Part shown: piece by piece, positions 982-40,416 of the stretch
Layout of the letters: the number at the start of each line of letters is the position of its first letter
How positions within the stretch are numbered: position 1 is the stretch's first letter
Notes under the pieces: model-generated
The model's input: the letters and a program-made list of their open reading frames with translations, nothing else
Databases searched by the model: none
Told to the model about the DNA's origin: nothing
Translations under genes and position numbers: made by a program
IMG/VR virus record: IMGVR_UViG_3300044611_001951
Coordinates: 1 to 52,937 of that record
Direction: 5' to 3' (one strand)
DNA length: 52,937 bases
From: a virus
Taxonomy: Duplodnaviria > Caudoviricetes

Positions 982-3900
982 GGAACACGACCTCGATGAT
1001 CTCGAAGGGCGAATCAGACTCGAACCGGAACTTGAAATGCCGGGCGTTCAGGTGCCCGATGTCGAAGCGCGTGACGGCGCGCGCGGCGGTGTCGATCTGG
1101 CTCGCTGGCGGGTTGGATGCGTGCGGGATCAGCGAGCGCGCGGTCGCGTTGAAGTCCAGGAACGCCGACACGGTGATCGCGCCGGTCCCGAGCGTCGTCG
1201 TCACGTCCAGGTAGCGGGCGCGCTTGACGCTCTCGCTGTCCTCGAAGTCGAGCCACCGCGTCTCCCACACGCGCGGAGACACGCCCAGCTTGATCGCGTC
1301 GCCGTTGGCGGGAGGTGCGCTCGCGGGCCGATCGAGGAGGATGAGCCCTGCTTCTCCACCCAGCGCAACACCTCGCTGGTTTCCCCACGAGACAACCGCC
1401 CCGCGCGGACCCGCGAGCGCGAGATCGAGAGTACCACTCGCCACAACGATCTGCGTGGTGGTGCTGCCGACGCCGGCCACGAGCGCCGAAGCGCCGTGCG
1501 TCGCCGCGGCCCCGAGCATGAACAGCCCCGTGTCCTGGCGGTCCAGCCAGACGAAGAAGCCTTCCTCGGTTCCGCCGACGAACTCGCCGACCTCGCCCTC
1601 GTCGGTCGCGTGATCGCACAGCGCCGTGAGGTTGGGGGACTCGTACCGCGAGAAGCGCAGGCCGCCGCCGAACGGCTCCGCGCTCAGCCGGTGGCTCGTG
1701 TCCAGCGCGTCGCGCTCGCGCAGCGTCATCACGATCTGGCTGCGGCGCGGGTTCACGGCCGCCACAGCGCGCAACGCGGCGCCGGGCTCGACGCCGTTCT
1801 CGAACAACTCGCGCACGTTCGCGCCGACCCAGCGCGGGATCCCCGAGCCGTCGTAGGCGTACACGCCGCGCTTGCCCCAGAACAGCAGCACGCCCTCGTG
1901 CTCGATGAGAGCCGCTCCGCTTGACGCCCCGAACGTCTTGCTCACAACTTCGCTCTGTGCGGCCCCCTGGCGCAGCACGGCGCGGTGCATCGTGTCGCGC
2001 TTCGTGATGACCAGTCGGCCGTTGAAGTCGCGCAGGCCCGTGATGCCCTCGCGCGAAGCGTCGGGCACGGCCACGATGTTCTCGGCGGGGAACGCGAGCG
2101 GCCGGTTCGGCTTCGAGAACACGGCCACGTCCGGGAAGTCGGTCGGCTCGCCCTCGTCGCTGTTCACCCAGCGCTTCAAGTTGCCGCACACGAGCGAGCC
2201 CTGAGACACCTCGAGCACGCTGCAATCGGGCGGCGGCCAGTTGTCGAACTCCAGGGGCAACCCGCGCGCGAGCTCGTCCAGCGTCGGCGAGAACGAGGTG
2301 CTTGTCGCGCCCTTGGGAACCTCGGCGACCTTGAAGAACGAGAACGTGCCGGGCAGCGTCGCGTAGACCCACGTTTCGATCTCGCCGCGGTCGGGCGATG
2401 CGGGCAAGTCCAGGAGTTGGACTTCGATCTTGCTGCTCGTGTTGCTGGCGTCGTCGCCCGCCGGGTCGATCTCCAGTTCGGGACCGGGCGCGGACACCTG
2501 GGCCTGGGCCGGGTCGTAGAACGCGCAGCGCACGCGAAACTTCTTGCTGAGCTCGCCGCGTTCGCGCAGGAACTTCCACGTCGGCGTGGTCGCTCGCGCG
2601 CTCGAGGCCGCCGCGGTGATCGCCACCTGCATCTTCTCGTTCGGCTTGGAACTGGCCGCGTCGGCAAGTCCGTAGGGCTGCGTGTCGACCGCGGTGAAGG
2701 CGTCGGCCGCCGACTCGTTCGCGTGCAGTTCTCCGGGGCCGGCGATGCCCGCGGTGAAGATTTCCGTGTTGCCGAACAAATCGCATCCGTCGTCCGCGAG
2801 GTCGGCGTTGAGGCCGCCGCCGGTGGCGCTGTTCGACGGCTCGAAGATCGCCGGTGCCGCGCCCGCTTCCACGGTGTACGCAAACGACGCGAACTCGCCA
2901 ACGAACGGCATCACGCCGCTGGACGCATCCAGCGCAAGGTGCGAGCCGAACAGTTCGATGGGGTAGCTCGACTGGTCGACGTTCTCGCTGTCGGCGAAGC
3001 CCTCGGACTTGATGAGCTTGACGCCGGTGTAGACGCCGCCCGGATCGCTCACGAGCGTCGAAAGGTCCGGCGCCGCGCCCGTGATCGGGTCCACGACGTT
3101 CACCACCGTCGACGAAGTGAAGGCGTTGATGACGAACGACTGGCCCGCGAAGGGTCCGGTCCCTGGGCAGAACAGCATCCCCAGGAAGTCGGCGGTGAAG
3201 CACGCCGCGCTCGCCGTCACCTGGCCCGCTGCGTTGCCCGTGAAAGTGCGGTCGTTGCGCGAGACGAGGCCCGTTCCCGACGAGTCCGCGACGCTCTGCT
3301 CCAAATCGGTCGTGAACCCGACGAACTGGCGCACGCTCGAGCTCGGCTTGTAGTCCCACGTCCGGCGCAGGAAGTTCGACGCCGAGGTCTTGCGGAACCG
3401 GCGCACCAGCAGCACGTCGTTCAGCGTCGATGCCGTGAGCCCAAAGAGCGTGTCTCGCCAGCAGCCAGATCCGAGCGTCTTGCTGGGGTAGCGCTTGCGC
3501 ACATAGACGTAGTGCCAGTGGTGCGGGTCGAACACGGGCACGGAGGTTTCGATCCACACCTCGCGCTTCTGCACCGTGTCGTACCAGCCGACGCGCGCCT
3601 TGCCGTCGAGCATGTCGACGAAAATCCCGCCCGACGCTGCGCTCTCGCCCTTGCTCGAGAACAGCAGGCGTCGCCCGTTGATCGAGTGCGGCTTGACCAG
3701 GCACTTGAACGCGAACACGTCGGCGCTGCCCGGCGTGAGCGCCGTGGGCTCGAACGCCATTTCGGTATCCCACCGCTGGTAGAGGTAGGCGTTCCCGTCG
3801 GTCTGGTAGTGGAAGATCGCGCCGTCGCTCGCCGAGGACGGGCCGATGGGGTCAGCGTCGGGATTGGCGACCGATGCGTCGCGCGCGTTCGGCTTCCACA

Positions 3901-8812: not shown

Positions 8813-9778
8813 TCACCTCCAAAGAGGGTACTGAGTGTCCTCGGTGCGCAGAATACCCTGCGCTCCCGCCGGAAGGATCGTGTGTCGCATGTAGTACGGC
8901 TGCGCGACCTGCCGCGGCGTGATGTGCCGCTGGAAGGACGAGTATTCGTCCGCGAGCACCGCCGCAAACGCCTTCTGCTGCTCGTACTGCCCGCGCGTGC
9001 CCCACAGCGAATTCGCCGCCATGTAGAGCACGAGCTGCATGTGCTGCTCGGGGATCTCGAAGTGCAGCTCGTAGGTGTCGCCAGCCTGCGGCGCGACCGT
9101 CCACGCGCTTTCCATCTGGAGCACCGTGTAGAGCGTGCCCGCCTCGTTCTGGAAGTGCGTCGAGCCAACCACAGCGAGCATCTGGCCCGACCGCGCCGAG
9201 TTGCCCGTGATCTCGACCACCGCGTTCGTGTAGGAGCCCGCCAGCGTCTCGTGCGGGAACACCTGGGCGTCTGTGCTCGTGTCCGCGTCAAGGCGCAGGA
9301 ACGCGCCCGTCGGCGTCGCCGGGAGGTTCGCCTGCGTCGGCAGCGTGCCCTTCGTCACCGCGGCCGGGCGCTTCGCCACGGCGAGCTCGAGGTCCAGCGC
9401 GCCGCGCGTCGTCACGAGGCGCAGCCCGTTCAGTTGGGGCAGCCAGCCGCCGGTCCCGTACTTCGTCGCCAACGGCACAACCGTCGTGCGGCCGATGCCG
9501 GTCGGGTCCGTCGTGCTCGCGTTCTCGCGCACTTCCACGATGCGCTCGGTCCACGACGGCAGCGTGTAGTCGAACACGTCAGCCTTGGCCTGGCGCGCGG
9601 CCGTCTTGGCGAGCCGCACCGTCGCGTTGAAGTAGCCCTCGTCCACCTCGGCCATGCGCCGCGACAGCGACAGCGCGTGGCGGTTCAGGTGCAGGCCGAT
9701 TTGGTTGTCGCTCCAGTGCGTCGCGTCCGGCGCCTGGAGCAACTCCCGTACGGCCTCGATGGCTTTCGAGAGGCGCAT
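8813..9778 (-). CDS. Head-tail adaptor-like protein (P22 gp4/tail tubular A-like)
   Basis: N-terminal VRELL…WSDNQI…LN, central DYTLP, C-terminal EIPEQHMQLVLYMAA, and position between capsid and nozzle genes. Confidence 0.7.
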   Translation of the reverse strand: MRLSKAIEAVRELLQAPDATHWSDNQIGLHLNRHALSLSRRMAEVDEGYFNATVRLAKTAARQAKADVFDYTLPSWTERIVEVRENASTTDPTGIGRTTVVPLATKYGTGGWLPQLNGLRLVTTRGALDLELAVAKRPAAVTKGTLPTQANLPATPTGAFLRLDADTSTDAQVFPHETLAGSYTNAVVEITGNSARSGQMLAVVGSTHFQNEAGTLYTVLQMESAWTVAPQAGDTYELHFEIPEQHMQLVLYMAANSLWGTRGQYEQQKAFAAVLADEYSSFQRHITPRQVAQPYYMRHTILPAGAQGILRTEDTQYPLWR

Positions 9779-9781
9779 GGT

Positions 9782-10078
9782 TCAGGCCCCGCGGCGAGCC
9801 GTTCCGTTCGTGCGCGGGACCCCCATCGAGTCGATCTTGTCGGCCAGGCGATCCATCGCCGCCACGAACAGCTTGTCACGCTCAAGCTGCTCGGTCTGCA
9901 TCAACTGGAGCTGCTTCTGGAACTCGTCCTGCGATTCCTTTTGGCGGCGCAGAAACAGCACCACCACGGCAATCACGGCAGCAACGGACACGCCCTCGGG
10001 GATCATCTTGCCCAGAAGGCTCCAGGCTTCTGCATCTCCGGGGGTTTGCATCACGGCGAGGGAGAAAAGTTGCAACAT
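9782..10078 (-). CDS. Small membrane protein (one TM helix plus coiled coil), possible holin-like
   Basis: GVSVAAVIAVVVLFLRR hydrophobic segment followed by a Gln/Glu-rich helix. Confidence 0.55.
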   Translation of the reverse strand: MLQLFSLAVMQTPGDAEAWSLLGKMIPEGVSVAAVIAVVVLFLRRQKESQDEFQKQLQLMQTEQLERDKLFVAAMDRLADKIDSMGVPRTNGTARRGA

Positions 10079-10081
10079 TCT

Positions 10082-10609
10082 TCACTTTCCTCGTGCGATT
10101 CCACGCAGGCCCAAATCCGTGACTGCTTCGTTTCGCTCGCGCAAGGCGTCCTGAGCGGCAGCGCCGCCCATCTCCATCCGGCGCATGATCGTCGGCATCC
10201 GGCGCCGCGCCCACTGGAGGTATGCCTGCATCTTCCGCGCGATCTCGTAGCGCGTGACGATGGCGGCCTTCGCGCGCTTGCTCGCGCCCTCGGCTTCGAG
10301 GTTCGCCGCGAACTCGCGCAGCCCCACGCTCGAGCGCTGGAGGTCGACCTCGCGGAGCTTCTGGATCAGCGGCTCGGCCGTGAACGGCAGCGGCCGGTAG
10401 ACCGGCGCGTTCCACGGGCCGTCGCACCAGAAGAACACATGCGACCAGCGGCCGCTGCGGCGAAGGTGCTCCTGCACCTCCCAGACGGAGCGGCGCGTGT
10501 TGAACACGCAGCGCAGCCGCGAGTCGAAGTCTCGCAGCCCGTCTTGGATGTTCTTGGGGCACGTCGGCACTTCACCGACGCGCCCCACGCTCACAACGGC
10601 GTCGCTCAC
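10082..10609 (-). CDS. Hypothetical protein (175 aa)
   Basis: GTG overlapping the upstream stop (GTGA). Reads LRDFDSRLRCVFN…WEVQE…LREVDL. Confidence 0.7.
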   Translation of the reverse strand: MSDAVVSVGRVGEVPTCPKNIQDGLRDFDSRLRCVFNTRRSVWEVQEHLRRSGRWSHVFFWCDGPWNAPVYRPLPFTAEPLIQKLREVDLQRSSVGLREFAANLEAEGASKRAKAAIVTRYEIARKMQAYLQWARRRMPTIMRRMEMGGAAAQDALRERNEAVTDLGLRGIARGK

Positions 10610-11901
10610 ATGCGCTCCGCGTTTTCGCCGTCCTCGTAGATCAGGCGGGCACGCTCCCACGACGCGCGCGGGCGCAGCACCTCGATCGCCTCGCCGCTGA
10701 CGAAGTTGCCGCCAGTGCCGAGCGCCGCCAACACAACAACGCCCATGCCGGTCGAGTCGGCCGTGAAATCCACGGCGCCGCCGCCGACGGTGCGCTCGAT
10801 CTGAATGTTGTTCGCGTCCACAGCCAGGGCGAAGTAGATCGCAGACGTGGACAGCGCGGTGCCCGAAACGGTCGGGAGCGCCTGCAAGACACTGCCGACG
10901 TTTGCGGGTTGCAGCAAGAGCGGCGTTCCAGCCGCGATGCCGTGATTGGTCAAGCCCACCCGATCGGTGCTGGCCGTGGCCGTGGCCGTGCGCGCCGTCG
11001 CGTCCGCCGCAAGGCGGAAGCTGTTGGCGTCGACTCCGGGCTGCACGTAGTAGTTCGTGTTCAGCGAAAGCCCGGTCGGCAGGCCGTTGTCCAGCGGCCG
11101 CACTCGCACCACGTCGCCCTTGCGCAGCCCGTGCGCGGTGAGGGCTACAGACCGATCCGCGGTCGTGCTCGTGACCGCGCAGGCGCCGAGCGACACGTCG
11201 AAGTTGCGCGCGCGGCCCGGAATGGCCATCCATCCAGCGGCGTTGTCGAACTGGAAGGACGCCTGCGTAGTGCCCTGCACGGCCGCCTCCCCGGTGTCGG
11301 GGAAAAACAGCGCGCGAACCTGACTCGGCAGATTGGGGCGCATCGGCGCCAACATCCGCGACGCCTGCAAGGGCGCCTCGCCGAGCAGCGCGATCCCCGT
11401 GCCGACCCCGATCTGGAGGGCGTTGAGCGTCCCCCAGGTGCCCGTCTTGGTCCCGTGGCTGATGGACGTGATGCGGTCGTAGAAGCGCGAAGTGCGGACG
11501 TGCGAAAGCTGGATGCCGTTCGGCTGCAACAGCGTGCCGATGTTGATGGTCAACGTCTCCACCTGCGGGCTGCCGTTGAGGAAGCCGCTGACCGTAATCG
11601 GGAGCGCGTTGGTCGAGCCGGAAATGTTGGGCGTCGCCTGGACGGCCCCAGGCTTTCCGGTGGGCGACGTGCGGTTGTTCTCCAGAACGATGCTGATTTG
11701 CTGCGGCCACGGCAGCACTTGGCCGCGAGCGACAAAATCAGGGTTCAGCGTCAGATTGCCGTTCGCCGTGTTGCTCGCCAGCGCTTGGAAGAGGCAAATG
11801 TGCTGCGGGTCGCCAGGCGGGCACCAAACGTCCGTCCCGTAGTGGAATTGGCGGCCGAGAAGGCTGGCGGGGTGCAGGTTTTTGAGGCGGATGCCGGACA
11901 T
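10606..11901 (-). CDS. Virion structural/decoration protein with two HG(L/I)..G…LPT…T.YYV…DAN repeats
   Basis: 431 aa directly after the capsid gene. Two internal repeats: AHGLRKGD…LPTGLSLNTNYYV…VDANSF and NHGIAAGT…LPTVSG…IYFALAVDANNI. Confidence 0.7.
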   Translation of the reverse strand: MSGIRLKNLHPASLLGRQFHYGTDVWCPPGDPQHICLFQALASNTANGNLTLNPDFVARGQVLPWPQQISIVLENNRTSPTGKPGAVQATPNISGSTNALPITVSGFLNGSPQVETLTINIGTLLQPNGIQLSHVRTSRFYDRITSISHGTKTGTWGTLNALQIGVGTGIALLGEAPLQASRMLAPMRPNLPSQVRALFFPDTGEAAVQGTTQASFQFDNAAGWMAIPGRARNFDVSLGACAVTSTTADRSVALTAHGLRKGDVVRVRPLDNGLPTGLSLNTNYYVQPGVDANSFRLAADATARTATATASTDRVGLTNHGIAAGTPLLLQPANVGSVLQALPTVSGTALSTSAIYFALAVDANNIQIERTVGGGAVDFTADSTGMGVVVLAALGTGGNFVSGEAIEVLRPRASWERARLIYEDGENAERM

Positions 11902-11938
11902 GACTGCTCTCTTGGGCCGGATGCCACTCGGCTACTCT

Positions 11939-11986
11939 CGCGGGGCTTGGATGGGCGTGCCGGTTGCCCCGCGGCTCCGGCACGCC
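11939..11986 (-). ncRNA. Predicted H-type RNA pseudoknot downstream of the capsid gene
   Basis: Stem 1 GGCGUGCCGG/CCGGCACGCC (10 bp). Loop CGCGGGGC pairs with downstream GCCCCGCG (8 bp). Linker CAUCCAA. Confidence 0.6.
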
Positions 11987-12013
11987 TTCGTCTCACTCAG
12001 GCGACGAGAGCGA

Positions 12014-13528
12014 TCAGCTCTCCTCGATGTCCATGATTCGGACGCCGCAACGATCGCGGACGCCCACGCCCAGCGTGCACTCTTCGACCGTGCGCGCCTG
12101 GTAGCGGTCCATGTCCTGGAGGTACTGCCAGATGTTGGCGCCCTGCTCCGAAGCCCACGAGAGCGGCTCCGTGACCCAGTTCTGGAACCCGCCCTGCTCG
12201 AGCGACAACCCGTGGATGTTGTTCTTCGGGTGCAGGCGGTCGACCAGCCACGGGATGCCGCCGGGGCCGACCATCGTGCGGTCCCAGCCACCGGGCAGGT
12301 TCACCGTGTTCACGAAGCGCTTCTCGCCCGTGAGCTGCGCGCTGTACACGCGCTTCGGTGCGTAGCTCGAGAGCCACACCTGGATCTCGGCGCTGTTGCG
12401 CTCCTCCACCTCGTCGATGATCTGCATGAGCAGGTTCTCGGTCGGGGTGCGCAGCGAGCCGCTGTTGTGGTTGACGACGCCCTGGTTGAAGGCGAGCTCG
12501 CTGTTCCAGCCGGCCGCGGCCGACGTGCACGCGAGGCCCTGGAAGTAGTTGCCGGTCGTGCTGGTGCGGTCGTCGGTGCCGCCCCACTGCCACGCGCCGT
12601 TGTCCGTGCCTTCGATGCCGCCGCCGGCGAAGTCAGCGCCGACTTCCGCAGCGCGGCCGTTGCCGTCGAGCGGGCCGCCGTAGCCGAGGATGCCCAAGAG
12701 GCCCTGCGGCTCGGCGCGGAACGCCGAGTTCTGGACCATCTGCGCGTTGCTCGAGTTGTCGGTCGAGCCGGTCTTGACGACCCAATCGCCGATCACGATG
12801 GTCGAGAGATCGGTGACGCCGGACGCGCCCGCCAGGAACTCAAACGTGGCCTGCGAGGAGTCGTCGACCGACGTGATGTTGCAGATCGCCTTGGGCACGC
12901 CAGCGCCCGTCAGGACGAGCACGCGCATACCCGCGGTGAGCCACTTGGTCGGCGCTTCGTTCGCCATGCCGGTTGCGCTGGCGCCAGGCGCGTTCAGGCC
13001 CGTGCCGATGTCCTGGTTGATGCGCAGCGTGAACTGCTGCGAGCCCGCGGCCGATCCGGCCTCGGCGATCTCGCACAGGCGGCCCGAGCCGTCGCTGTAG
13101 AGCATCCGCGCGCGGTCGAGCTCGTAGTCGTCGAGGAACTGCTGGATCTCCAGCGCCATCGGCTCGACGTCGCCCGCGCCGTTCGACATGGCGCGCACGA
13201 GCTTGCCGTCGAGGATGAAGCGGCCGAACTGCTGGCGCGAGCGGTAGGCGTACCACGCCATGCGCCGCTGGCCCGGATCGGGGAACTTGCCGTTGTCGCC
13301 GACCGCGTTGAACGCGCGCGGGTTGCGACCGTACATCGCGCGTTCGCGGACGTGGCGGCCCCCGACGTACTTCGTGTTCTCGGGGATCAGGGAGAGGATG
13401 CGCGCGTTGTTGTTGCGCGTGTCGTGCAGCACGTTGCTCACGAAGTCGTGAGTCAGGTAGTGCAGGAACGGGAATTGGCTCGAGGACGAGCCGAAGCCCA
13501 AGCCCAGGTTTGCGTCGGTGGCTGCCAT
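12014..13528 (-). CDS. Major capsid protein (HK97-fold, with insertion domain)
   Basis: 504 aa following portal and scaffold. Segments G.F.LDG…A…E…RMLYSDGSG, EPQGLLGI and GIPWLVDR..P match my recollection of podoviral capsid proteins. Confidence 0.85.
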   Translation of the reverse strand: MAATDANLGLGFGSSSSQFPFLHYLTHDFVSNVLHDTRNNNARILSLIPENTKYVGGRHVRERAMYGRNPRAFNAVGDNGKFPDPGQRRMAWYAYRSRQQFGRFILDGKLVRAMSNGAGDVEPMALEIQQFLDDYELDRARMLYSDGSGRLCEIAEAGSAAGSQQFTLRINQDIGTGLNAPGASATGMANEAPTKWLTAGMRVLVLTGAGVPKAICNITSVDDSSQATFEFLAGASGVTDLSTIVIGDWVVKTGSTDNSSNAQMVQNSAFRAEPQGLLGILGYGGPLDGNGRAAEVGADFAGGGIEGTDNGAWQWGGTDDRTSTTGNYFQGLACTSAAAGWNSELAFNQGVVNHNSGSLRTPTENLLMQIIDEVEERNSAEIQVWLSSYAPKRVYSAQLTGEKRFVNTVNLPGGWDRTMVGPGGIPWLVDRLHPKNNIHGLSLEQGGFQNWVTEPLSWASEQGANIWQYLQDMDRYQARTVEECTLGVGVRDRCGVRIMDIEES

Positions 13529-13577
13529 GTGAGTTGAAGGTGGTTGGGGCAGCCACCGACGTTAGACCGGGGGCCGC

Positions 13578-14576
13578 CTAGACGGATTGATTCGTGCCGT
13601 TCAGCGCTTGGCGGAACGACGACATGAGGCCGCGGAGACCTTGCACCGCCGACCCGTCTTTGAGCGCCTTGCGCGTCGCGTACTTCGGGTCCAGGCGCGG
13701 GATCTGCGGAGCCCCGCTCGGCGTACGAGGCACGGCAGCATCAGCGCGCGATTGACGCGCCTTGCGCTCGACCTCCAGGTGACCCTCGACCAGCCGCTTC
13801 ACTTGTGCGGCGATGATCGGCGCGGCGTCCTCGGGGGTCTCGAACTCGCCAGCGGCGAGAGACGACTCCAGGAGCCTGCGGGCCACGTCCCCAGCTTCGG
13901 GGTTTTCGTTCAGGTACGCCTGGGAGGACAGTGCGCGCTCGACCCTCGTGTGACGGTCCCTCTGGTGGAGGGCCTGCTCGGTCTGGTTGTACCGGGCTTC
14001 GAGGGCGGCGATGCGCCGCTCCCATTCCGTCGGGATTTGAGCCTGCCGCGCCTGCGGCGTCAAGGGCTCATCCAGAGGATCGCCTGCGGGCTCTTCGCGC
14101 CGCGCGGGCTGGACGCCTCGCATCACGTCGAGCGCAGCCTGGAAGCGCTCCGGGTGCGTCTGGCGCAAAAGCTCCAGGTCGCGCACCACGGCGAGGCGCG
14201 CTTCGTTGTCGCGCTGCTCACGCTCGACCTGCTGGCGACGCTCCTCGAGCTTGTCGGCCGCGAGGCCCTTCTGCGCAAACTTCACCAGGTCGTCGTGCGA
14301 GAGCTCGATGTCCTGGTGACGGAACCGCACCTTGGCCTTCGGCGGAAGCGTAGGCGCGGGCGCAGCCGGGGCCGCCGGCTGTTCGGGCGCGGCCGGCTCG
14401 CCGCCTTGCTCCGGCGCCTGCGGGGCCATGCGGTTCAGGATGCTGTTCGGGCGCAGCGTCGGCGCGGCCGCGGGCTGCTCGCCGCCACCGCGACGGATGG
14501 CGTTCAGCACGTCGAACTGCGCTTGCGGCGCGGACGGTTGCCCGTTGGTGGGCTTGATGATCTGGTTCTCGGACAT
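13578..14576 (-). CDS. Capsid scaffolding protein
   Basis: Pro/Ala/Gln-rich N-terminus, KVRF….IELSHDDLVKFAQKG motif, coiled coils, directly upstream of the capsid gene. Confidence 0.75.
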   Translation of the reverse strand: MSENQIIKPTNGQPSAPQAQFDVLNAIRRGGGEQPAAAPTLRPNSILNRMAPQAPEQGGEPAAPEQPAAPAAPAPTLPPKAKVRFRHQDIELSHDDLVKFAQKGLAADKLEERRQQVEREQRDNEARLAVVRDLELLRQTHPERFQAALDVMRGVQPARREEPAGDPLDEPLTPQARQAQIPTEWERRIAALEARYNQTEQALHQRDRHTRVERALSSQAYLNENPEAGDVARRLLESSLAAGEFETPEDAAPIIAAQVKRLVEGHLEVERKARQSRADAAVPRTPSGAPQIPRLDPKYATRKALKDGSAVQGLRGLMSSFRQALNGTNQSV

Positions 14577-14579
14577 GGC

Positions 14580-15170
14580 TCAGACGACCTCCTCACCGAC
14601 AGACTCGTTGATCTCACCGGCACGACGCTCGAACTCCTCGCGGGAGCACGAGCCGAGCACGTACTCGCGTTTGACCATCACGTAGAACGTGACGTTTCCC
14701 TCGACATCCCGCTTGGGCGTCAGGTGCGGCGCCCACGGGCGCGAGTCCCCGGACAGCAAGCACTCTTGGCAGGGGATGTGATCCCGCGTCCAAATGTGCG
14801 TCGTCTCCGGCTTGACCAGCGAGAACCACTGATCGGGCCGAATCGCCCCCTCGTAGGGGCCGGTCAGGTAGGCCGCGTGGTGCTCGCGGTTCCGCGGGCA
14901 GTAGAGGAAGTGGATGTTCTCCTCCGCGTCGCGCTGGCGCTCCTCCTTGGCGCGCTGGGCGTCGCGCTCGCGCTTCTTCACGAGAAGCTCGGCGGCGCGG
15001 CCGTACAGCGGCTTGCGCGGGGCCTTGGTGGGTGCAGGCGCTTCCTGCGGGGCGGGTTCAGGCGTGCCCGGTTGGGGCGTCGCCTCGGCCTGCGGCTCCG
15101 TCGTCTGCGGCGTGGTGGCCGCCTGTGCGACGGAAGCCGCGAGGGCCTCCTTGTTGATGGTCTTAGCCAC
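14580..15170 (-). CDS. Hypothetical protein with putative Zn ligands
   Basis: Low-complexity N-terminus, then CPRNREH and CQEC. Start overlaps the portal stop region. Confidence 0.65.
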   Translation of the reverse strand: MAKTINKEALAASVAQAATTPQTTEPQAEATPQPGTPEPAPQEAPAPTKAPRKPLYGRAAELLVKKRERDAQRAKEERQRDAEENIHFLYCPRNREHHAAYLTGPYEGAIRPDQWFSLVKPETTHIWTRDHIPCQECLLSGDSRPWAPHLTPKRDVEGNVTFYVMVKREYVLGSCSREEFERRAGEINESVGEEVV

Positions 15171-17298
15171 GGGTGGCTCCTTGGGATGCCTTCGGTTTCG
15201 GCTTCGAGGGTTGGCCCTTGTTGGCCCTCCCCCCCGGCTGGGTCATCTGCTGCAACTGGAGTTGCTGCAACATGGCCTGCTGGAGTTTCTGCTGGTGCTC
15301 CTGGTAGTGCTGGATCACCAGCTGGCGCGCGATCGGATCGAGCCGGCGGAACTCGTCGGTGCGCATCCGCCGCGACATGACGCGCATGTGCGCATCGTCG
15401 TCGTCGAACGGGTTGGTCTTGTAGTCGAGCATCGGCTCGCCAAGCTGGCTCTGCACGACGAACTTGAGCGGGTCGGCGACCATCTCGTCCCACTCGCGTT
15501 CCTGGTTCTCCTCTTCGACGAGGCGCTGCGCGAGCACGTCCTCGGCGCCGCCGTAGGCCAGCGTCTTGAGCACGCTGAGCTTGTCCTCGGGGTTGTTGAT
15601 CGGGTCGAGCACGCCCGCCTGCACGTACTCGAGGATGCGCGCCCGCTCGACGCTCCGGCTCTGGAAGAAGTCGGGCTCGCCGACGATTCGAATGTCCTCG
15701 CGGATGTCCGCGGCCTCGAAGCGCTGCACGCGGTAGGCGTTGTCGGCGCCCACGTAGGTCATCGTGCGCTGCGTCGTGTAGAACTTCCGCGCCGTGGCGA
15801 GCATGATGCGCCCGCCGAGCAGCGTCGCCCGCAAAGCGCTGCGCGCCGCCGGCGTGAGCGCCTTGTTCTTCTCCTCGATCATCGCGTCGAGGCCGGGCCG
15901 CGAGCGGATCTGCCCCGGCAGCTTGCTCATATCGGGGTCGGCCTGGCTCGAGATCATCTGCATCTCGGCGAGCGCGCGGTTCGCCCCGTCGGCGAGCTCC
16001 TTGGGGATCATCGGCACCGGGCCGGGCATCATCGGCTTGCCGCCGGTTGCGAGCAGGTCGCACTCGTACACGACGCCGGGCTCGATGGCGAGCTGACCCT
16101 TGGGCAGCCCCGAGCGCTTGTCGACGAACATCGGCGGCGTCGAGTGGACGTTGGCGACTTCGGTTTGCTTGCCGCGCGCGTTGTTGTACTGGAACTGCGG
16201 ATTGCGCAGGTCGTCGATGAGCGGGTGCCCCATGAACGAGCCCGGCTTCTTCTGCCAGTCGACCTTGATGAAGGGCAGCGGGTACTTCGTCGCCTGCATC
16301 GGGTTGTCGCGGTTCACCAGCACGGTGTCGCCCGCGATCACGATGTAGCGGCCTTTCCAGTTGTTGCGCCGCATCGGGCGCTCGAAGAAGCGCGTGAGCA
16401 CCGTGCGATGGCGGTTCTTGTCGCGCGGCTGCATGTTCGCGTGCGGCGTGTTCGCGCCGCCCTGCATGAACGAGAGCAGCTCGTCCCACCACAGCGACGT
16501 GGTGCGCGGCTCCGCGGGCTTGATGTCCTTGACCGCGGCGAACCCGTAGGTGTCCTCGAGCGTCGAGAGGTCGACCATCTCGTTCGTGCCGCACCACGAG
16601 CAGGAGTCGTCCTGGAAGTCCGTGCGGGAAGTCCAGTCCCAATGCACGCGCAGCGGCGAGTGAACGCGCGCCGTCACTTCGCCCGGCGGGATGTCCTCGA
16701 AGCGCCCCTCGTCCTCGGCGACGCGTTGCTGGTCGGGCGTCAGGCCCACCACGGTCTCGCCGTTGTCGCCCAGGTAGAAGCGATCCGGCGAGCCCGCCTC
16801 CGGGTTCCAGCCGATCTCGATGAAACCAGAGCCGCACGCGGCCGCCCAGGTGAGCGCTTCCTCGAGAAGCTCGCTCCAGTTGACCACGTTGTCGCGCAGG
16901 TGCTCGAACAGCTTTTCGCTGACGAAAGCCTTGTCGCGCTCGGCCTTGGTGTGGTCCCTGGTCGGCGCCCGGAACACCGACGAACTGGCGAGCACGGTGC
17001 TGATCGCGCGCGTGACCAGCGTGCGCACGAAGTTGGCCCGGTACAGAACCTTGTGCGGCGGAAGCTGCGGCGTGCGGAACGCGATTCCGTCGTCGACGAA
17101 GTGCTGGTTCCCGTTGAGGAACGCGAGGTTTTTCACCCACTCGCGTTCCATCGGGTTGCGGTGCTGATCGTTCAGCTTCGGGCTGATCCGAGAGCGCACG
17201 TACTGCATGGCGTCGCTCTTGGTGAGCTTGCCGCGCGGTACGACCAGCGAGGGGCCGGATCCTTGCGTCTGGGAGTTGCGCGAGAGCTGAAACTGCAT
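15163..17298 (-). CDS. Portal protein (P22-like)
   Basis: 711 aa after TerL. W..NLAFLNGNQ, CGSGFIEIGW, YPLPF, GHPLIDDLRNPQ.QYN and a Gln-rich C-terminal helix. Confidence 0.9.
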   Translation of the reverse strand: MQFQLSRNSQTQGSGPSLVVPRGKLTKSDAMQYVRSRISPKLNDQHRNPMEREWVKNLAFLNGNQHFVDDGIAFRTPQLPPHKVLYRANFVRTLVTRAISTVLASSSVFRAPTRDHTKAERDKAFVSEKLFEHLRDNVVNWSELLEEALTWAAACGSGFIEIGWNPEAGSPDRFYLGDNGETVVGLTPDQQRVAEDEGRFEDIPPGEVTARVHSPLRVHWDWTSRTDFQDDSCSWCGTNEMVDLSTLEDTYGFAAVKDIKPAEPRTTSLWWDELLSFMQGGANTPHANMQPRDKNRHRTVLTRFFERPMRRNNWKGRYIVIAGDTVLVNRDNPMQATKYPLPFIKVDWQKKPGSFMGHPLIDDLRNPQFQYNNARGKQTEVANVHSTPPMFVDKRSGLPKGQLAIEPGVVYECDLLATGGKPMMPGPVPMIPKELADGANRALAEMQMISSQADPDMSKLPGQIRSRPGLDAMIEEKNKALTPAARSALRATLLGGRIMLATARKFYTTQRTMTYVGADNAYRVQRFEAADIREDIRIVGEPDFFQSRSVERARILEYVQAGVLDPINNPEDKLSVLKTLAYGGAEDVLAQRLVEEENQEREWDEMVADPLKFVVQSQLGEPMLDYKTNPFDDDDAHMRVMSRRMRTDEFRRLDPIARQLVIQHYQEHQQKLQQAMLQQLQLQQMTQPGGRANKGQPSKPKPKASQGATRG

Positions 17299-17310: not shown

Positions 17311-17628
17311 TCAGGTCTGGAGGTTGTTCGGCAGGTCGTAGCCGTCCGCATCCTGCTGGTACGTCGGCTGCATCGGAATCCGCGTGAACTGCGGTTGCGC
17401 GGGCTCCTGCGGCTGACCCATCGTAGCAACGAGGGGCGCCTGCGCTCGGATCGCGGGATCGGCGGCGCCGGAGAGGTGCGTCACCACGAGCAGCTTCTCC
17501 ATGTCGGCCTGGCGCCGCATGGCTTCGCGCGCCATGCGCGCCGTGCTCGAGATCGAGTAGATCGCGGCCGCCAGCGCGAGCACCACGACCACCAGGGCGA
17601 ACCAGTCCATCGTTCCGTTCATCGTCAC
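17311..17628 (-). CDS. Small membrane protein between TerL and portal
   Basis: N-terminal TM helix WFALVVVVLALAAAIYSI. Start overlaps the TerL stop. Confidence 0.65.
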   Translation of the reverse strand: MTMNGTMDWFALVVVVLALAAAIYSISSTARMAREAMRRQADMEKLLVVTHLSGAADPAIRAQAPLVATMGQPQEPAQPQFTRIPMQPTYQQDADGYDLPNNLQT

Positions 17629-19592
17629 AGTCCTTGCCCGTTCGGGGCGGTGTCCCAGCGCCGTTTGGTGTTGAGCCCGTCGTCGCCGCGGCGCTCGTTG
17701 CGGCGACGCCAGAAATCCTCATCGGAGCCAGTCGGCGGAAGCCGATCGGGCTCCTCGTGCGTGGCCTGTTCCGCGGCCGTCAGCTCGAGCAGCTTGAGCG
17801 CGATGCCGTAGGCCATGATGCAGTCGTTCCTGCACTTGCGGTCGATCTTCTCCTTCTCGTCGAGCTGCGCGTCGAGGCACTCCTGGAGCAGTCGCTTCGA
17901 GGGCGTGTCCGCGTCGGGGTTGGCGAGCGCGATCGCCACGCGGTCGATCACGAGGGCCTTCCCGCTCGTGCTCATGATCCAGCCCTTGCGCGGCACGAAC
18001 TTGCCTTCGCGGTCCTCCCAGCGCTGTTGCACGAACAGGCGTTCGCAGCCCGCGGCCTCGGCGGCTTCGTACACGGCGAGCCCGTGCTGCGAGGGATGCG
18101 TCTCGACTGCGACGGTGGCGCGGTACAGATCACTGAGCAGCTTCACCGTGCGGCCGAACAGGTGCGGAGGCTCCCATCCGTACCACTCCGCGACCACAGC
18201 CTCGGTCTTGCAGTCGATCACGCACGCGACGCACGGGTCGCCGCCGCGCACGCCCGCCGCGGTGTCCACGCCGATCACGTAGTTGCGCCCGGCCGCCGGC
18301 CAGCGCCACACGCTCACCTCGCCGTGGCGGTCCTCGAGGATGCGCGGCTCGCCGGCGTCGTCCACGATGCGCCCCACCTGGATCGGCGGGCGAACGTGCG
18401 CGGTCATTTTGTGCTGGACGTGCTCGAGGTTGAACGCGCTGCGCCCCGACGCGAGCAGCGCCTCCTCGGGGAACGCCGGGCACTGTTCATGGAACGTCTG
18501 GATGTTCCCGTTGCACTTCTCCGCGATGTAGTAGCGGCGCCATGCCAGTTGGTCGTAGTCGACGTTCTTCGGCGGCGCCCCGCGGATGTGCACGCGCTGC
18601 GCGAGCAGGATGCGCTCCTCCGGCGTCAGCGTGCGCTCGATGCGCGCGCGGATGTCGCTCGGCAGCGCGCTCGGGTTCGAGCCGATCTTCGTCCAGCGAT
18701 ACTCCTCGTGGAGAAACCACGGGATGAACATGGCGGCCCAGCCGATGCCGTAGTCGACGCCCGAACCGTCCTCGCGCCGCAGGTCGTCGGGCATCGCCAA
18801 GCCCTGCTGCTTGTACCAAGCGCGCCGGAACTTGTCGGCGAAGTAGCCCGTGTTCCCCTTGGCCTGGGAAACGTCGATGGCGAGCGACTCGGGGACCTCG
18901 GGCAGCGCGAGCTCGATGCCCTTGCCCTTTTCCTCGGCGTCCGGCCACTTCGAGGTTTCCTCCATGTCGACGTAGAGGTTCGTCTCGCCGAAGCCTGGGT
19001 TCGGCGTGTTCGCGCTCACGACCTGGATGCGCGAGTTGAACGGCGGCCCCATGACGATCATGTCGCGGTTCGACTTGTCCGGCGTGAGGCTCCACGACGC
19101 GCCGCTCGACATCCGCAGCCGGGTGAACATCAGCTTCACGCGGCCGAGCAGCGTCTCGCACAGCTCCTCGCGGTCCGTGACCACGCGGAGGTTCAAGTTC
19201 GCCATCGTGAGCATCGCGTGCAGGAACACGGCCAGCGTGTAGGTGCTGATCCCGTTCTGGCGCACCTTGAGGATCACGACGCGCCGCGGGGCGCCGCGCC
19301 GCTCTTGCCTGAGCAGGATGGCCTCGAGGTTGCGCTGCGACTGGTTGTAGACGAACGGAATCGGGCGGGCCTTCTTGTCGACGATCACCACCAGGCGCTC
19401 GATCCACTCGCGGCGCGACATCCGCCACTGGTTGCCCCGCCGGTCGCCGAACACGCCGCGCTCGCGGTTGTAGAGCAGGAAGAAGTGATTGAGCCGCTGT
19501 TGCTCCGGCGAATCGCCGGCCGCCTCGTAGGCGCGGCGCTTGGCGTCCGTGAGCAGCGCCAGCAGGCGCGGATCGTCCTCGCGGAACCGCAC
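17625..19592 (-). CDS. terL: Terminase large subunit
   Basis: PFVYNQSQ, Walker A-like ILKVRQNGIST, FIPWF, RNase H-like nuclease YVIGVDTAAG…D…NDCIMA. GTG start 1 nt after the upstream stop. Confidence 0.93.
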   Translation of the reverse strand: MRFREDDPRLLALLTDAKRRAYEAAGDSPEQQRLNHFFLLYNRERGVFGDRRGNQWRMSRREWIERLVVIVDKKARPIPFVYNQSQRNLEAILLRQERRGAPRRVVILKVRQNGISTYTLAVFLHAMLTMANLNLRVVTDREELCETLLGRVKLMFTRLRMSSGASWSLTPDKSNRDMIVMGPPFNSRIQVVSANTPNPGFGETNLYVDMEETSKWPDAEEKGKGIELALPEVPESLAIDVSQAKGNTGYFADKFRRAWYKQQGLAMPDDLRREDGSGVDYGIGWAAMFIPWFLHEEYRWTKIGSNPSALPSDIRARIERTLTPEERILLAQRVHIRGAPPKNVDYDQLAWRRYYIAEKCNGNIQTFHEQCPAFPEEALLASGRSAFNLEHVQHKMTAHVRPPIQVGRIVDDAGEPRILEDRHGEVSVWRWPAAGRNYVIGVDTAAGVRGGDPCVACVIDCKTEAVVAEWYGWEPPHLFGRTVKLLSDLYRATVAVETHPSQHGLAVYEAAEAAGCERLFVQQRWEDREGKFVPRKGWIMSTSGKALVIDRVAIALANPDADTPSKRLLQECLDAQLDEKEKIDRKCRNDCIMAYGIALKLLELTAAEQATHEEPDRLPPTGSDEDFWRRRNERRGDDGLNTKRRWDTAPNGQGL

Positions 19593-19593
19593 G

Positions 19594-19989
19594 TCAGACG
19601 GACGCCTTTCGCGTGAGCTTGAGCCGGTTGATGAGGCTCGCCACCGCCCAGGGCTCGATCTCGAGCGCCCGCGCGATCTGCACATGGCTCATGCCCACGT
19701 CGAGCAGCGCCCGCAGCTTCTTCGCCTCGAGCTGCGCCAGGTCGCGCAGGTTCCGGTTCTTGCGGCGGAACGTCTTGTTCCGGTTCCACTGGAATTGGCA
19801 CGCCGGGCACACGCGCACGCGCCGCCCCTCGGGGCCGCCGTCGACGACGAACTTGCCCATGCCGGGATACTCGCCGCACACGAACACGGTCGTTCTCACG
19901 ACCCGCCCCGACGGGTATCGGTACTCCCACGGAGCCCCGCACGCCTCGCACGTCGACGGGACTTCGGCGTCCGGTTTTCGCTTTGCCAT
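19594..19989 (-). CDS. Zn-ribbon plus C-terminal HTH protein (regulator or terminase small subunit)
   Basis: CEAC…CPAC and GMSHVQIARALEIEPWAV HTH. First gene of the late operon, directly upstream of terL. Confidence 0.65.
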   Translation of the reverse strand: MAKRKPDAEVPSTCEACGAPWEYRYPSGRVVRTTVFVCGEYPGMGKFVVDGGPEGRRVRVCPACQFQWNRNKTFRRKNRNLRDLAQLEAKKLRALLDVGMSHVQIARALEIEPWAVASLINRLKLTRKASV

Positions 19990-30615: not shown

Positions 30616-31824
30616 ATGGAACAGACCGACAAGATCCAGACCCAACAGGCGCAGGCCCCGCGCGTGGACCTGAGCATGATGGGCTTGCAGCCGACGACCT
30701 TCGACCAGCTTTGGGCGGCGTCGCAGGCGCTCGCCAAGAGCGACGTTGTGCCCGTCGCGTACCGCGGCAAGCCCCACAACGTCCTGGCGGTCGGGATGCG
30801 CGGCGCCGAGATGGGCGTCTCGTTGCTCGTGGCGCTCGGCGAAATGCACGTCATCGACGGCAAGGTCGGGATGAGCGCGGACCTGCTCGTTGCGCGAGTG
30901 CGCGCTTCGGGGAAATGCTCCTACTTCAAGCTGCTCCAGGTCACGGACGAGATCGCCAAGTACGAGGGCAAGCGCTCGGACACGGGCGAAGTCCAGGCGA
31001 TGGACTACACGCTCGCCGAGGCGCAGGCCGCGGGGCTGCTCGGCAAACAGAACTGGAAGGGCAACCGGCGCGCGATGCTGATGGCCCGCGCTTCGGCCCG
31101 CTTGGCGCGCGAGCTCTGGCCGGACGTGTGCGTCGGCCTGTACGTCCGCGACGAGCTCGACGAGATCCGCTCGCAGACGCCCGACGCCGCCGTGCAGGCG
31201 ACCTCGCGCCCGACGACGATCGACGCCGTGAAGGCGCAGGCCCGTGAACGCCTTGGGATCGCTCAGGCTGCGTCTGCGCCGCAGGCGACCTCCGAGCCGC
31301 GTCAGGCAGAGATCGTGCAAGGCGCGCAGGCGCAGGCGTTCCCGCCGCCGCCGGACGACCACGAGGACGCCGAGGCGTTCTTCGGCGACGCGCCGCGCAA
31401 CGAGGAGCCGGATGGCTCCAACGCTGGAGACCTGCCGGATCAGGAGCCGCGCACGCCGGCGCATCCGCTGGTGAGCCCGGCGAACTGGTACGCGCCCGAC
31501 ATGGGCGGCGTGGACGTGAACGACGGCAGCGAGCTCGAGCTTCGCCTTCCCGCGCGCATCGACAACTTCGGCGCGCTGATGCACGAAAACGTCTGGAGTT
31601 CGGGACCGCTCAAGGCGTGGACTCCGGCTCAGGCGCTCCAGGGCGGCGAAGGCGGCGGGCGCCACACTCTGCTGCGCAAGGCCGTGGACTTCGCCGTCTC
31701 CAAGCGCTTCGAGCCTCACCTGATCCCGCGCGGCGCGCTGGTCGCCGACTGGTGCCTCGCGCTGCTCGAGCGGCGCTACGCGCTGATGCGCGCGGCCGGC
31801 CTCGCCACGAGCGACGAAGCCTAG
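30616..31824 (+). CDS. recT: RecT/Redbeta-family single-strand annealing protein
   Basis: SDVVP.AYRGKP…G.EMG…MHVIDGK, A..AGL..K.NW…ML.ARA…WPDV..GLY..DE. Adjacent to the YqaJ nuclease. Confidence 0.85.
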   Translation: MEQTDKIQTQQAQAPRVDLSMMGLQPTTFDQLWAASQALAKSDVVPVAYRGKPHNVLAVGMRGAEMGVSLLVALGEMHVIDGKVGMSADLLVARVRASGKCSYFKLLQVTDEIAKYEGKRSDTGEVQAMDYTLAEAQAAGLLGKQNWKGNRRAMLMARASARLARELWPDVCVGLYVRDELDEIRSQTPDAAVQATSRPTTIDAVKAQARERLGIAQAASAPQATSEPRQAEIVQGAQAQAFPPPPDDHEDAEAFFGDAPRNEEPDGSNAGDLPDQEPRTPAHPLVSPANWYAPDMGGVDVNDGSELELRLPARIDNFGALMHENVWSSGPLKAWTPAQALQGGEGGGRHTLLRKAVDFAVSKRFEPHLIPRGALVADWCLALLERRYALMRAAGLATSDEA

Positions 31825-31848: not shown

Positions 31849-31907
31849 CCCCGGAGCACGGGTTGGCTCGCGCTGCTGCTCCGGGGGTCATCCATGCAGC
31901 GCGGGCC
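31849..31907 (+). ncRNA. Predicted H-type RNA pseudoknot downstream of recT
   Basis: Stem 1 CCCCGGAGCA/UGCUCCGGGG (10 bp). Stem 2 GGCUCGCGCUGC/GCAGCGCGGGCC (12 bp, one G-U). Linker GUCAUCCAU. Confidence 0.65.
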
Positions 31908-31947: not shown

Positions 31948-33120
31948 ATGAACGGGCACGAAAAGAAACTGCGGGAGGCGTGGGCCGGAGCGAGCGAGAC
32001 GGCGCGTAACTGGTTCGCTGTGGTGGACGAAGGCCGCAACATCTACGGCATTTGCTCCGCAGTCCGCGCCTTCTGCGAGAGCGAGCCGAGCGCCGCCGTG
32101 CTGGTTGCGGGCGACGGCACCTTGTGGGCCGACGATCGCCGCATAACCGCTGCCGCCCCCGCCGTGGTCGAGCCCGAGGCGCTGCGCAAGGTGCGGGAGG
32201 CGTGGGCTGGCCACAGCGCGAAGGCTAAGGCAAGGGCGCTGCGGGGCTTCCGGGGTGCCAGCGGCTACAGGCCGAGCGACGAGCTTTTCCGCGCCCTCGC
32301 CGACCTCCTCGAAAGCGCGCCGGTGGAGGGGGGCGAGACACAGCGCGCCCTGTTCGCCGACTTGCAACGTGCGTTGGTCGCCGAAGATGAGCGCGACAAG
32401 CTGCGCGCCAAGCTCGCCGCCGCCGAGAAGGAGCGGGACGAGGCGCGAAGCGAAACGAACATCATGCGGACGCAGCTTCGCGATCAGTCCGATATGTGCA
32501 ACAAGGCAGCGTCCAGGCGCGACTATCTGCGCGATTGCTTGCAGCGAGCCGAGAACGCCCGCGACGAGGCAATCTCGCACATCGCTCAGTTCCAAGATAT
32601 TGCCCGTCAGCGCGACGCGGCCAAGCGCGAGGCGGAAGCGATGCGCGCGGAGCAGGGCGGAATGCGTGCGATGGCGGACGCTTCCAACCGCAGCTACAAG
32701 GCGCAGCTCGCCGACCTGCAACGCGCGCTGACCGAGGAGAAGAAGGCGCACAACGAGGCGCTGGCCCGCGCCTGGCTCGCCGCGCCGCTGTCCGCGCCCG
32801 ACGCGCCCGACGAGTACACGCGCGCTGCGGTGGAGTTCGCGGAGGCGTCGGTTGACGATCGCGTTAGCTACTCGAACTTCGAGCCGATCGAGGATGCGTG
32901 GAAAGCGCTCTACGATGCCCGCCAACGCGGCGAGCCGAGCGCGCCCGTGTCCTCGCCGCCGCCCGCGCGCGTGCTGGAGTGCTGGGTCTTGCAATATCAC
33001 GGCGCTTCGGCGCGCATTGTCATTGGCGACATTGAGGCCGCGCGCAAGATCGGAACGCACGCTGAATGCTTCCACCGCGTCGCCCTGCCGGTCATCGAGA
33101 CCGTGGAGCGTGGGGCGTGA
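31948..33120 (+). CDS. Hypothetical coiled-coil protein with internal repeats (390 aa)
   Basis: K(L/V)REAWAG x2, ADLQRAL x2, ERD-type heptads. Confidence 0.7.
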   Translation: MNGHEKKLREAWAGASETARNWFAVVDEGRNIYGICSAVRAFCESEPSAAVLVAGDGTLWADDRRITAAAPAVVEPEALRKVREAWAGHSAKAKARALRGFRGASGYRPSDELFRALADLLESAPVEGGETQRALFADLQRALVAEDERDKLRAKLAAAEKERDEARSETNIMRTQLRDQSDMCNKAASRRDYLRDCLQRAENARDEAISHIAQFQDIARQRDAAKREAEAMRAEQGGMRAMADASNRSYKAQLADLQRALTEEKKAHNEALARAWLAAPLSAPDAPDEYTRAAVEFAEASVDDRVSYSNFEPIEDAWKALYDARQRGEPSAPVSSPPPARVLECWVLQYHGASARIVIGDIEAARKIGTHAECFHRVALPVIETVERGA

Positions 33121-40140: not shown

Positions 40141-40416
40141 ATGGCAAAGCGTGGATGCGCGAAGGGCAGTTCCAGAGACAGCTCTGGAGACTGCCGCAAC
40201 TACAAGAAAGAGACCGCCTACGCCGCTCGCCCGGAGCAGGTGAAGAACCGCGTCGAGCGCAACCGCGCGCGGCGTGAGGCCGGGCTCAAGGTCGGCGATC
40301 CTCGGGAGGTCGACCACATCAAGCCGCTGGCGCAGGGCGGCTCGCACGACAAGAGCAACCGGCGCGTCACGTCGCGCGCGTTCAACCGCAAGCGTGCAGC
40401 GCAGGCGCGCGGCTAG
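40141..40416 (+). CDS. Small HNH endonuclease-like protein
   Basis: RNYKKE…RNRARR…EVDHIKPLAQGGS…N.R…FNR, AGGAG upstream. Confidence 0.85.
   Translation: MAKRGCAKGSSRDSSGDCRNYKKETAYAARPEQVKNRVERNRARREAGLKVGDPREVDHIKPLAQGGSHDKSNRRVTSRAFNRKRAAQARG

Follow-up and report, generated by a model that had tools for sequence, protein, structure and literature searches.

We describe here a pair of H-type pseudoknots in the genome of an uncultured lake-water (freshwater) phage of the Caudoviricetes, represented by IMG/VR record IMGVR_UViG_3300044611_001951, of which positions 1 to 52,937 form the stretch of DNA analysed (the window; 52,937 bases, 68.4% G+C). One knot, copy A, lies on the minus strand directly behind the gene for the major capsid protein, and the other, copy B, lies on the plus strand behind the gene for a RecT-like single-strand annealing protein. 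We conclude that the pair is real, under selection and previously uncatalogued; a single small clade of uncultured freshwater phages is known to carry it. The capsid locus comprises the following features, in the direction of transcription:

12014..13528, minus strand: major capsid protein of 504 amino acids, stop codon UGA at 12016-12014 (phrog_14242, major head protein, E-value 1.1e-18)
12006..12022, minus strand: stop-codon hairpin GAGAGC-UGAUC-GCUCUC, 6 base pairs, with the capsid UGA in its loop (read directly and present in the minimum-free-energy fold)
11939..11986, minus strand: pseudoknot copy A, H-type, 48 nucleotides (read directly and found by an H-type scan)
11986-11977 with 11963-11954, minus strand: stem 1 of copy A, GGCGUGCCGG/CCGGCACGCC, 10 base pairs
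11973-11966 with 11946-11939, minus strand: stem 2 of copy A, CGCGGGGC/GCCCCGCG, 8 base pairs
11976-11974, 11965-11964 and 11953-11947, minus strand: loops 1 (AGC), 2 (AA) and 3 (CAUCCAA) of copy A
11916..11932, minus strand: small hairpin GCCG-AGUGGCAUC-CGGC, 4 base pairs, in the leader of the next gene (read directly; not in the minimum-free-energy fold)
10606..11901, minus strand: gene downstream of copy A, 431 amino acids, ATG at 11901, without an assigned family

Architecture of the two pseudoknots

The elements of copy A follow one another in the order GGCGUGCCGG-AGC-CGCGGGGC-AA-CCGGCACGCC-CAUCCAA-GCCCCGCG, an exact match that is unique in the window; the knot begins 27 nucleotides past the capsid stop and finishes 37 nucleotides ahead of the ATG at 11901. 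The genes of the late block on this strand are tightly packed, and the 112-base gap 3' of the capsid gene is among its few real spacers. The two stems of copy A do not overlap, so both can form together, and by our judgement, rather than by computation, the loop lengths look sufficient to span the grooves. Stem 1 alone contributes -20.9 and stem 2 alone -16.1 kcal/mol, and a nested-only fold of the 48-mer, in which stem 1 is combined with a 3-base-pair inner helix, reaches -27.6 kcal/mol. The nested fold of the surrounding 151-nucleotide region is unexceptional, with an energy z-score of -1.79 and 14 of 200 shuffles folding equally well.

Of the features that make an intrinsic terminator, GC-rich stems are present (10 and 8 base pairs) and a U-run directly 3' is absent from both copies. 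What follows stem 1 of copy A is CAUCCAAGCC, and what follows stem 2 is AGAGUAGCC; neither is a U-tract, and a terminator scan of positions 9000-15000 reports no site at the capsid spacer. All reading frames close ahead of 11901, frame 0 at 12016 and again at 11995, frame +1 at 11934 and frame +2 at 11999, and with the three frames closed an extended capsid product is excluded. A -1 frameshift pseudoknot was rejected, since the knot lies 27 nucleotides past the stop, no X XXY YYZ motif precedes it and the other frames are shut at 11999 and 11934. Readthrough of the retroviral gag-pol type uses a knot about 8 nucleotides past a leaky stop with the frame open beyond it; stop-codon readthrough was likewise rejected, given the spacing of 27 nucleotides (24 for copy B) and a second in-frame UGA (11995-11993) ahead of the knot.

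These observations agree with the original prediction for this locus, which had placed the capsid stop within the GAGAGC-UGAUC-GCUCUC hairpin (12022-12006), a pseudoknot behind it (11986-11939, recovered here by an independent H-type scan) and a small GCCG...CGGC hairpin ahead of the next start (11932-11916), had seen no U-tract terminator and, with all three frames stopping before 11901, had found a simple capsid-extension frameshift unsupported. It had also spoken of the knot as a copy, and a second knot of the same design is indeed found on the plus strand:

30616..31824, plus strand: RecT-like single-strand annealing protein of 402 amino acids, stop codon UAG at 31822-31824 (phrog_561, E-value 1.3e-36)
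31849..31907, plus strand: pseudoknot copy B (H-type scan)
31849-31858 with 31877-31886, plus strand: stem 1 of copy B, CCCCGGAGCA and UGCUCCGGGG
31865-31876 with 31896-31907, plus strand: stem 2 of copy B, GGCUCGCGCUGC and GCAGCGCGGGCC
31859-31864 and 31887-31895, plus strand: loops 1 (CGGGUU) and 3 (GUCAUCCAU) of copy B; loop 2 has no nucleotides
31948..33120, plus strand: gene downstream of copy B, 390 amino acids, coiled-coil-like, probable ATG at 31948 after GAGGGA

Copy B has the order CCCCGGAGCA-CGGGUU-GGCUCGCGCUGC-UGCUCCGGGG-GUCAUCCAU-GCAGCGCGGGCC; it begins 24 nucleotides past the UAG of the RecT-like gene and finishes 40 nucleotides ahead of the probable ATG, and no U-run and no listed terminator is found 3' of it. 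The two copies lie on opposite DNA strands, each in the sense of its flanking genes, and both stand 24-27 nucleotides past a stop codon, in one of the rare spacers, with a six-base loop motif in the same register. That register consists of CGCGNNGC, 12 nucleotides, CAUCCAW (W being A or U) and GCNNCGCG, and the stem 1 sequences are unrelated; a MAFFT alignment of copies A and B failed to align the two. Copy B is flanked by stretches poor in G, with 3 G in 24 nucleotides on the one side and 7 G in 40 on the other, whereas the flanks of copy A are not depleted in this base. The product of the gene ahead of each copy, capsid in one case and annealing protein in the other, is probably needed in bulk, and the proteins encoded downstream (431 and 390 amino acids) are mutually unrelated.

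Watson-Crick knots with a stem 1 of at least 9 and a stem 2 of at least 8 base pairs number two in the window, compared with a mean of 0.145 in 200 dinucleotide shuffles, three of which reach two. Dispersed repeats of the REP or MITE kind were rejected as a class for these knots, there being two copies only, with unrelated stem 1 sequences and no direct-repeat family over them. CAUCCAA was also rejected as a genome-wide motif, for it occurs five times where 2.39 would be expected, and five are reached in 13 of 100 shuffles. A third CAUCCAA follows a 13-base-pair hairpin at 10587-10555 (hairpin and motif together 10587-10544), within coding sequence that shows poor conservation in the related record G001.

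Conservation and covariation in close relatives

Both copies are present in G001, a 50,940-base phage record with direct terminal repeats, rated 100% complete, whose capsid protein is 79% identical to that of the window; each of the two genomes thus carries two copies. In the comparison of capsid 3' untranslated regions in related phages, which the original prediction had proposed as a check, 109 of the 112 bases of the spacer that holds copy A (spacer A), and 47 of the 48 bases of the knot, are identical in G001. In the same comparison 382 of 504 third positions of the capsid gene (76%) and 67 of 100 in the next gene are identical, and Fisher's test on the differences (3 of 112 in the spacer against 53 of 200) gives p = 1e-8. 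The three differences are located in loop 2 and in the flanks, and the spacer is bordered on either side by more diverged sequence. A third lineage, represented by loci L071 and L072 (capsid 84% identical in protein and 77% at third positions), also carries copy A; L071 has a single extra U, paired with the A ahead of stem 1, so that this stem reaches 11 base pairs, and CAUCCAA is intact.

The flanking hairpins are conserved as well. The 3' arm and loop of the stop-codon hairpin and its 5' arm GAGAGC are unchanged in the G001-like and L071 lineages; this hairpin and the small hairpin are conserved in two close lineages without covariation, and each on its own amounts to no more than chance. 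A translation switch in which the 3' arm GCUCUC of the stop hairpin would pair with GAGAGC in the ribosome-binding region of the next gene was rejected, the latter GAGAGC being lost in L071 with all else kept.

Copy B has changed far more in sequence and has kept its fold; its spacer agrees with that of G001 at 71 of 123 bases. Five pairs show compensatory changes between the two genomes, four in stem 1 and one in stem 2, and one further pair has become G-U. Paired cells amount to 97.7%, compared with 37-50% when the partners are slid, and 16 of 500 column shuffles attain these values, a test limited by the availability of two sequences. Copy B contains U-G pairs in both genomes in addition to the G-U pair of G001; read from the opposite strand they would become A-C mismatches, and this points to the sense RNA as the folded form. 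Loop 3 of copy B reads CAUCUU in G001, where only CAUC is kept, and the C/A-rich character of the flanks is common to both genomes.

Searches for further members and for known families

A knot scan of 150 loci (773 kb), mostly capsid relatives, returned only L004 (the locus of the window itself), L001-L003 and L071-L073. A 15-mer of copy B gave 68 matches in IMG/VR, only that in G001 being real, and all three matches to a strict fixed-gap motif in the same database were G001-like records. The same strict motif in genome_contigs, a set covering the genomes of 185,579 species, gave 93 loci, 28 of them with complementary NN and none with a stem 1 of at least 8 base pairs. Among the loci collected, a separate conserved element was observed, GUAAACAAGG, an 11-base-pair hairpin CGCGCCGCAUG...CAUGCGGCGCG with a U-run in most copies, which matches the degenerate pattern by chance (L365, L368, L372, L374, L386, L388, L391, L392, L396, L399, L411, L415, L432 and L447); most of these loci belong to Caballeronia or Burkholderia genomes, L365 and L447 being of other or unlisted origin, and the element looks like a conserved terminator of that genus.

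No Rfam 15 family matched at its gathering score anywhere in the window, and the best-scoring models in a permissive search of both spacers were PtaRNA1, on the opposite strand, with 20.4 bits where 47 are required, and F6, with 19.6 where 46 are required; these matches are weak and implausible. Our literature search found no account of a phage capsid gene with a pseudoknot at its 3' end, nor of a phage exonuclease-resistant RNA, the list of 10,006 candidate viral RNAs in PMC10690425 lying outside its coverage. Contigs from four sequencing runs were compared; X4 and X5 hold the same phage and X6 a G001-like variant that shows the same three spacer differences. An RNA-labelled run (X16) gave one match of 36 nucleotides, at less than 90% likeness and within the capsid gene, which is not proof of the phage. 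As to the host, relatives of the capsid and RecT-like proteins are absent from genome_contigs, and the phages collection is also without a match.

Plain hairpins at the corresponding site in distant relatives

A strong GC hairpin is found 3' of the capsid stop in ten distinct lineages with capsids 30-45% identical (L005, L006, L008, L009, L015, L023, L075, L077, L087 and L096), most of them without a U-run. It is followed by a pyrimidine-rich linker, a small hairpin and a homologous downstream gene; relatives of low G+C content have only UGAAAGGAGG...AUG after the capsid stop. The arms of this hairpin in L005 and L023, GCGGGGC...GCCCCGC, are similar to stem 2 of copy A. We conclude from these hairpins that a structure behind the capsid stop is old, and to judge from the sequences the knot looks like an elaboration of the older hairpin.

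Hairpin-plus-U-run terminators occur elsewhere in relatives (G001 3426-3462; G003 11329-11296), and in L015 the strong hairpin is accompanied by a weak one, immediately behind the capsid stop, with UUCUUUUUCU on its 3' side. In the window itself canonical terminators number 19, against 27.9 expected from shuffles, and are thus not in excess.

Two further features accompany the capsid spacers of distant relatives. In L008, L009, L015, L023, L075, L087 and L096 a leader about 50 nucleotides ahead of the start of the gene after the capsid gene reads AGUAUCC, a hairpin of 5-6 base pairs with variable arms, a ribosome-binding stretch GGGG or GGAG, AACUAUCC and AUG; the small GCCG...CGGC hairpin of the window occupies the place of this leader hairpin (window leader, 11937-11899). 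The AGUAUCC/ACUAUCC pair is confined to this one locus in G004 and G005, and RNAalifold on a MAFFT alignment of the downstream-gene leaders returned no consensus structure. Clusters of stop codons in several frames, for example UGACCUGACUG, directly follow the capsid stop in L005, L006, L008, L023, L075, L078 and L098.

Gene context

The ends of the window carry an exact direct repeat of 124 bases (1-124 and 52805-52928), which reflects either terminal redundancy or a circular assembly. Three gene blocks are present: a minus-strand late block (from about 20187 down to 464), a plus-strand block (20260 to about 40400), which besides the RecT-like protein encodes an AAA ATPase and a C5 methylase, and a further minus-strand block. 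The late block includes two other recognisable genes:

17625-19685, minus strand: large terminase
15163-17298, minus strand: P22-like portal

Nineteen homologues of the capsid protein were found in a set of 5.8 billion proteins; a capsid homologue 87% identical (P0002) is encoded on a contig of 53 kb. The 431-residue protein encoded behind copy A has no Pfam or PHROG match, and its Atlas matches are viral hypothetical clusters only; a homologue alike at the N-terminus is also encoded 3' of the capsid gene in relatives. Within its gene a tract at 10701-11210 is about 99% identical to G001, the gene being otherwise about 80-85% identical; on this sequence comparison the tract looks like a recent exchange between two phage lineages. 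A probable gene at 10082-10609 (minus strand, GTG at 10609), poorly conserved in G001, overlaps the stop of the 431-residue gene (ATGTGA). The 390-residue protein behind copy B is like its G001 counterpart in the C-terminal part only, with 50% identity over residues 150-390.

Elsewhere in the window, a protein of 2709 amino acids (42805-50934, minus strand) has a weak ParB-like stretch at residues 776-955 and matches very long phage proteins, with no function assigned. Where the convergent blocks meet, a small open frame (40142-40417, plus strand), whose product may by eye have an HNH-like pattern of His and Asn residues, ends within a few bases of the opposing stop (40413); there is neither a spacer nor a terminator between the blocks at this point.

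Possible roles of the pseudoknots

Of the roles considered, we tentatively favour one in which copies A and B are 3' boundary elements that stabilise the upstream message, at a confidence somewhat short of even. What the sequences show is the fold in its two copies, its sense orientation, its place behind stop codons, its conservation and its covariation; that it takes part in the decay or processing of RNA, and which way it works, is what we infer. Each knot would form the 3' untranslated end of the message of a gene whose product is needed in abundance, and the long polycistronic transcript would be cut, or would end, in the unstructured stretch 3' of the knot. The compact two-stem fold may then block 3'-to-5' exonucleases, so that the upstream message would outlive the downstream one and more capsid, or more annealing protein, would be made than product of the next gene. 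We favour this role because the knots stand after stop codons in the sense orientation, because relatives have simple hairpins instead, and because no U-run follows in a clade that makes use of such terminators. That relatives use U-run terminators elsewhere makes the lack of a U-run here a real difference, and this favours a post-transcriptional role over plain termination. Third-position GC, taken as a proxy for expression, is the highest of the respective block in both upstream genes (0.94-0.95 for the capsid gene in the late block and 0.91 for the RecT-like gene in the plus-strand block). The original prediction had suggested that the structure sets a high ratio of capsid to downstream expression without an intrinsic terminator; the lack of such a terminator is borne out, and the ratio itself is an interpretation that fits the position, the sense orientation and the hairpins of relatives.

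Several points weigh against stabilisation of the upstream message. Copy A is seen in three independent lineages and copy B in two only, and copy A is conserved without covariation. Third-position GC is a weak proxy for expression, and a search for an RNA run holding the phage, among 24 runs found, returned none. A plain hairpin would suffice as an exonuclease barrier, so the conserved loop 3 (CAUCCA) and the near-invariant 112-nucleotide spacer A suggest a more specific partner, and the G-poor spacer of copy B would be equally in keeping with Rho loading or with ribosome standby. The evidence as it stands cannot separate termination, RNA stabilisation and control of the downstream gene.

Termination would take the form of a leaky attenuator, which we regard as possible but rather unlikely. 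The knot would pause or partly terminate RNA polymerase without a U-tract, alone or together with Rho acting on C-rich, G-poor flanks, and fewer polymerases would reach the downstream genes. Its position matches that of leaky terminators after the capsid genes of other phages, such as T-phi of T7, and the weak hairpin with UUCUUUUUCU in L015 occupies a similar place. The G-poor, C/A-rich flanks of copy B, seen in both genomes, would suit Rho; the flanks of copy A are not G-poor. Canonical terminators are not in excess in the window, so a different kind of signal may operate. Counting against an attenuator are the absence of a U-run 3' of either copy and the use of hairpin-plus-U-run terminators at other sites in relatives. 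We know of no bacterial pseudoknot that acts as a terminator, and our literature search turned up none.

Control of the downstream gene would be the work of a protein operator: a phage protein would recognise the shared knot with its CAUCCA loop and regulate how the next gene is translated, much as at T4 gene 32. We think this unlikely. It would account better for the extreme conservation of spacer A, which goes far beyond structural need, and the sharing of loop 3 and of the register between copies whose stems differ is what a common ligand would demand. However, loop 3 of copy B is merely CAUCUU in G001, the two downstream proteins are unrelated, the knots finish 37-40 nucleotides ahead of the starts and leave the ribosome-binding sites outside, and no candidate RNA-binding protein was identified. 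Copy B does adjoin the gene of a protein that binds single-stranded nucleic acid, and an unstructured G-poor tract runs from it to the next start; the gp32 operator of T4, as far as the account in PMC10690425 goes, is a pseudoknot 5' of the regulated gene, and copy B sits 3', not 5', of the RecT-like gene.

A block to 5'-to-3' exonucleases of the RNase J type, like that of the exonuclease-resistant RNAs (xrRNAs), appears improbable. Here the knot would protect the downstream message or free a stable small RNA that starts at the knot, and the pairing of a hairpin loop with 3' sequence is indeed the topology of the plant-virus xrRNAs, which on the description given in PMC6299227 also occur between genes and are pseudoknot-dependent. 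However, in copy A, with its 10-base-pair stem 1 and its loops of 3 and 7 nucleotides, nothing indicates the ring about the 5' end by which xrRNAs are defined; none of the Rfam models matched, and a plain hairpin suffices in distant relatives.

A feature acting at the DNA level, whether protein-bound interleaved inverted repeats or a recombination junction, is very improbable, as is a neutral relic without any function in the RNA: interleaved inverted repeats can be protein sites and the nearly identical tract at 10701-11210 points to recent exchange between lineages nearby, but stem 1 differs wholly between the copies of one genome, so that one protein could not read both, copy B keeps its complementarity and not its sequence, the G-U pairs make the fold strand-specific, the orientation of the knots follows that of the genes, and spacer A is bordered on both sides by more diverged sequence.

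Comparison with known systems

Structures that skew expression after capsid genes are well known in model phages, but these are hairpins. In T7-like phages the leaky terminator T-phi after gene 10, which encodes the major capsid protein, is a hairpin with a U-run that is read by the phage's own RNA polymerase. The arrangement described here resembles it in that the capsid gene, within a long late unit, is immediately followed by a strong RNA structure, which in T7 lets capsid message exceed the messages of the tail genes. It differs in that the structure is a pseudoknot of two stems and lacks a U-run, that a phage RNA polymerase was not identified, and that another copy stands behind an early recombination gene. 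The intercistronic 3' stem-loop stabilisers, or 'positive retroregulators', include the REP sequences of malEFG, the hairpins of the puf operon and the 3' stem-loop of the Bacillus thuringiensis cry gene. These too are stable folds past a stop codon, and by shielding the upstream segment from 3' exonucleases they give rise to unequal protein ratios, which is the mechanism favoured here; they are, however, plain hairpins and often dispersed repeats, whereas the present elements are H-type pseudoknots with a conserved loop, two per genome, in one phage clade.

Among pseudoknots, the T4 gene 32 operator (PMC10690425) is similar in that a knot in a phage messenger RNA lies beside an unstructured tract and the gene of a single-strand-binding protein. 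As outlined there, the T4 knot is 5' of the gene whose product binds it, whereas the knots of the window are 3' of the capsid and RecT-like genes and are known from sequence alone. The xrRNA-D class, taken as described in PMC6299227, likewise consists of small viral pseudoknots that join a hairpin loop to 3' sequence, are sometimes intergenic and act on RNA decay. Loop-to-3' pairing is thus common to this class and copy A; the internal-loop architecture is not visible in copy A, and of the P1 and P2 helices, the L1 and L2B loops that are more than 97% conserved, and the ring round the 5' end of that class, whose members stop a 5'-to-3' exonuclease at the base of P1, none is evident here.

A bolder and, in our estimate, unlikely reading is that the knots form a new class of phage RNA 'punctuation', in which the conserved loop 3 would dock on stem 1 and the fold, sufficient in itself and with no need of a U-tract, would bring a bacterial exonuclease or RNA polymerase to a halt. 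Bacterial viruses would then possess a counterpart to the exonuclease-resistant RNAs known from eukaryotic viruses, and would employ it twice per genome to split long transcripts into messages of different abundance. What is new is a compact pseudoknot in two paralogous copies, with a conserved loop, compensatory changes and no U-tract, at a place where relatives have a simple hairpin; it would be a new fold for a familiar job, with a reach limited to one small clade of uncultured lake phages. If the knots do act as barriers to an exonuclease or a polymerase, they would show high-GC phages partitioning polycistronic messages without canonical terminators, and would offer, in 48 nucleotides, a small portable module for RNA stability.

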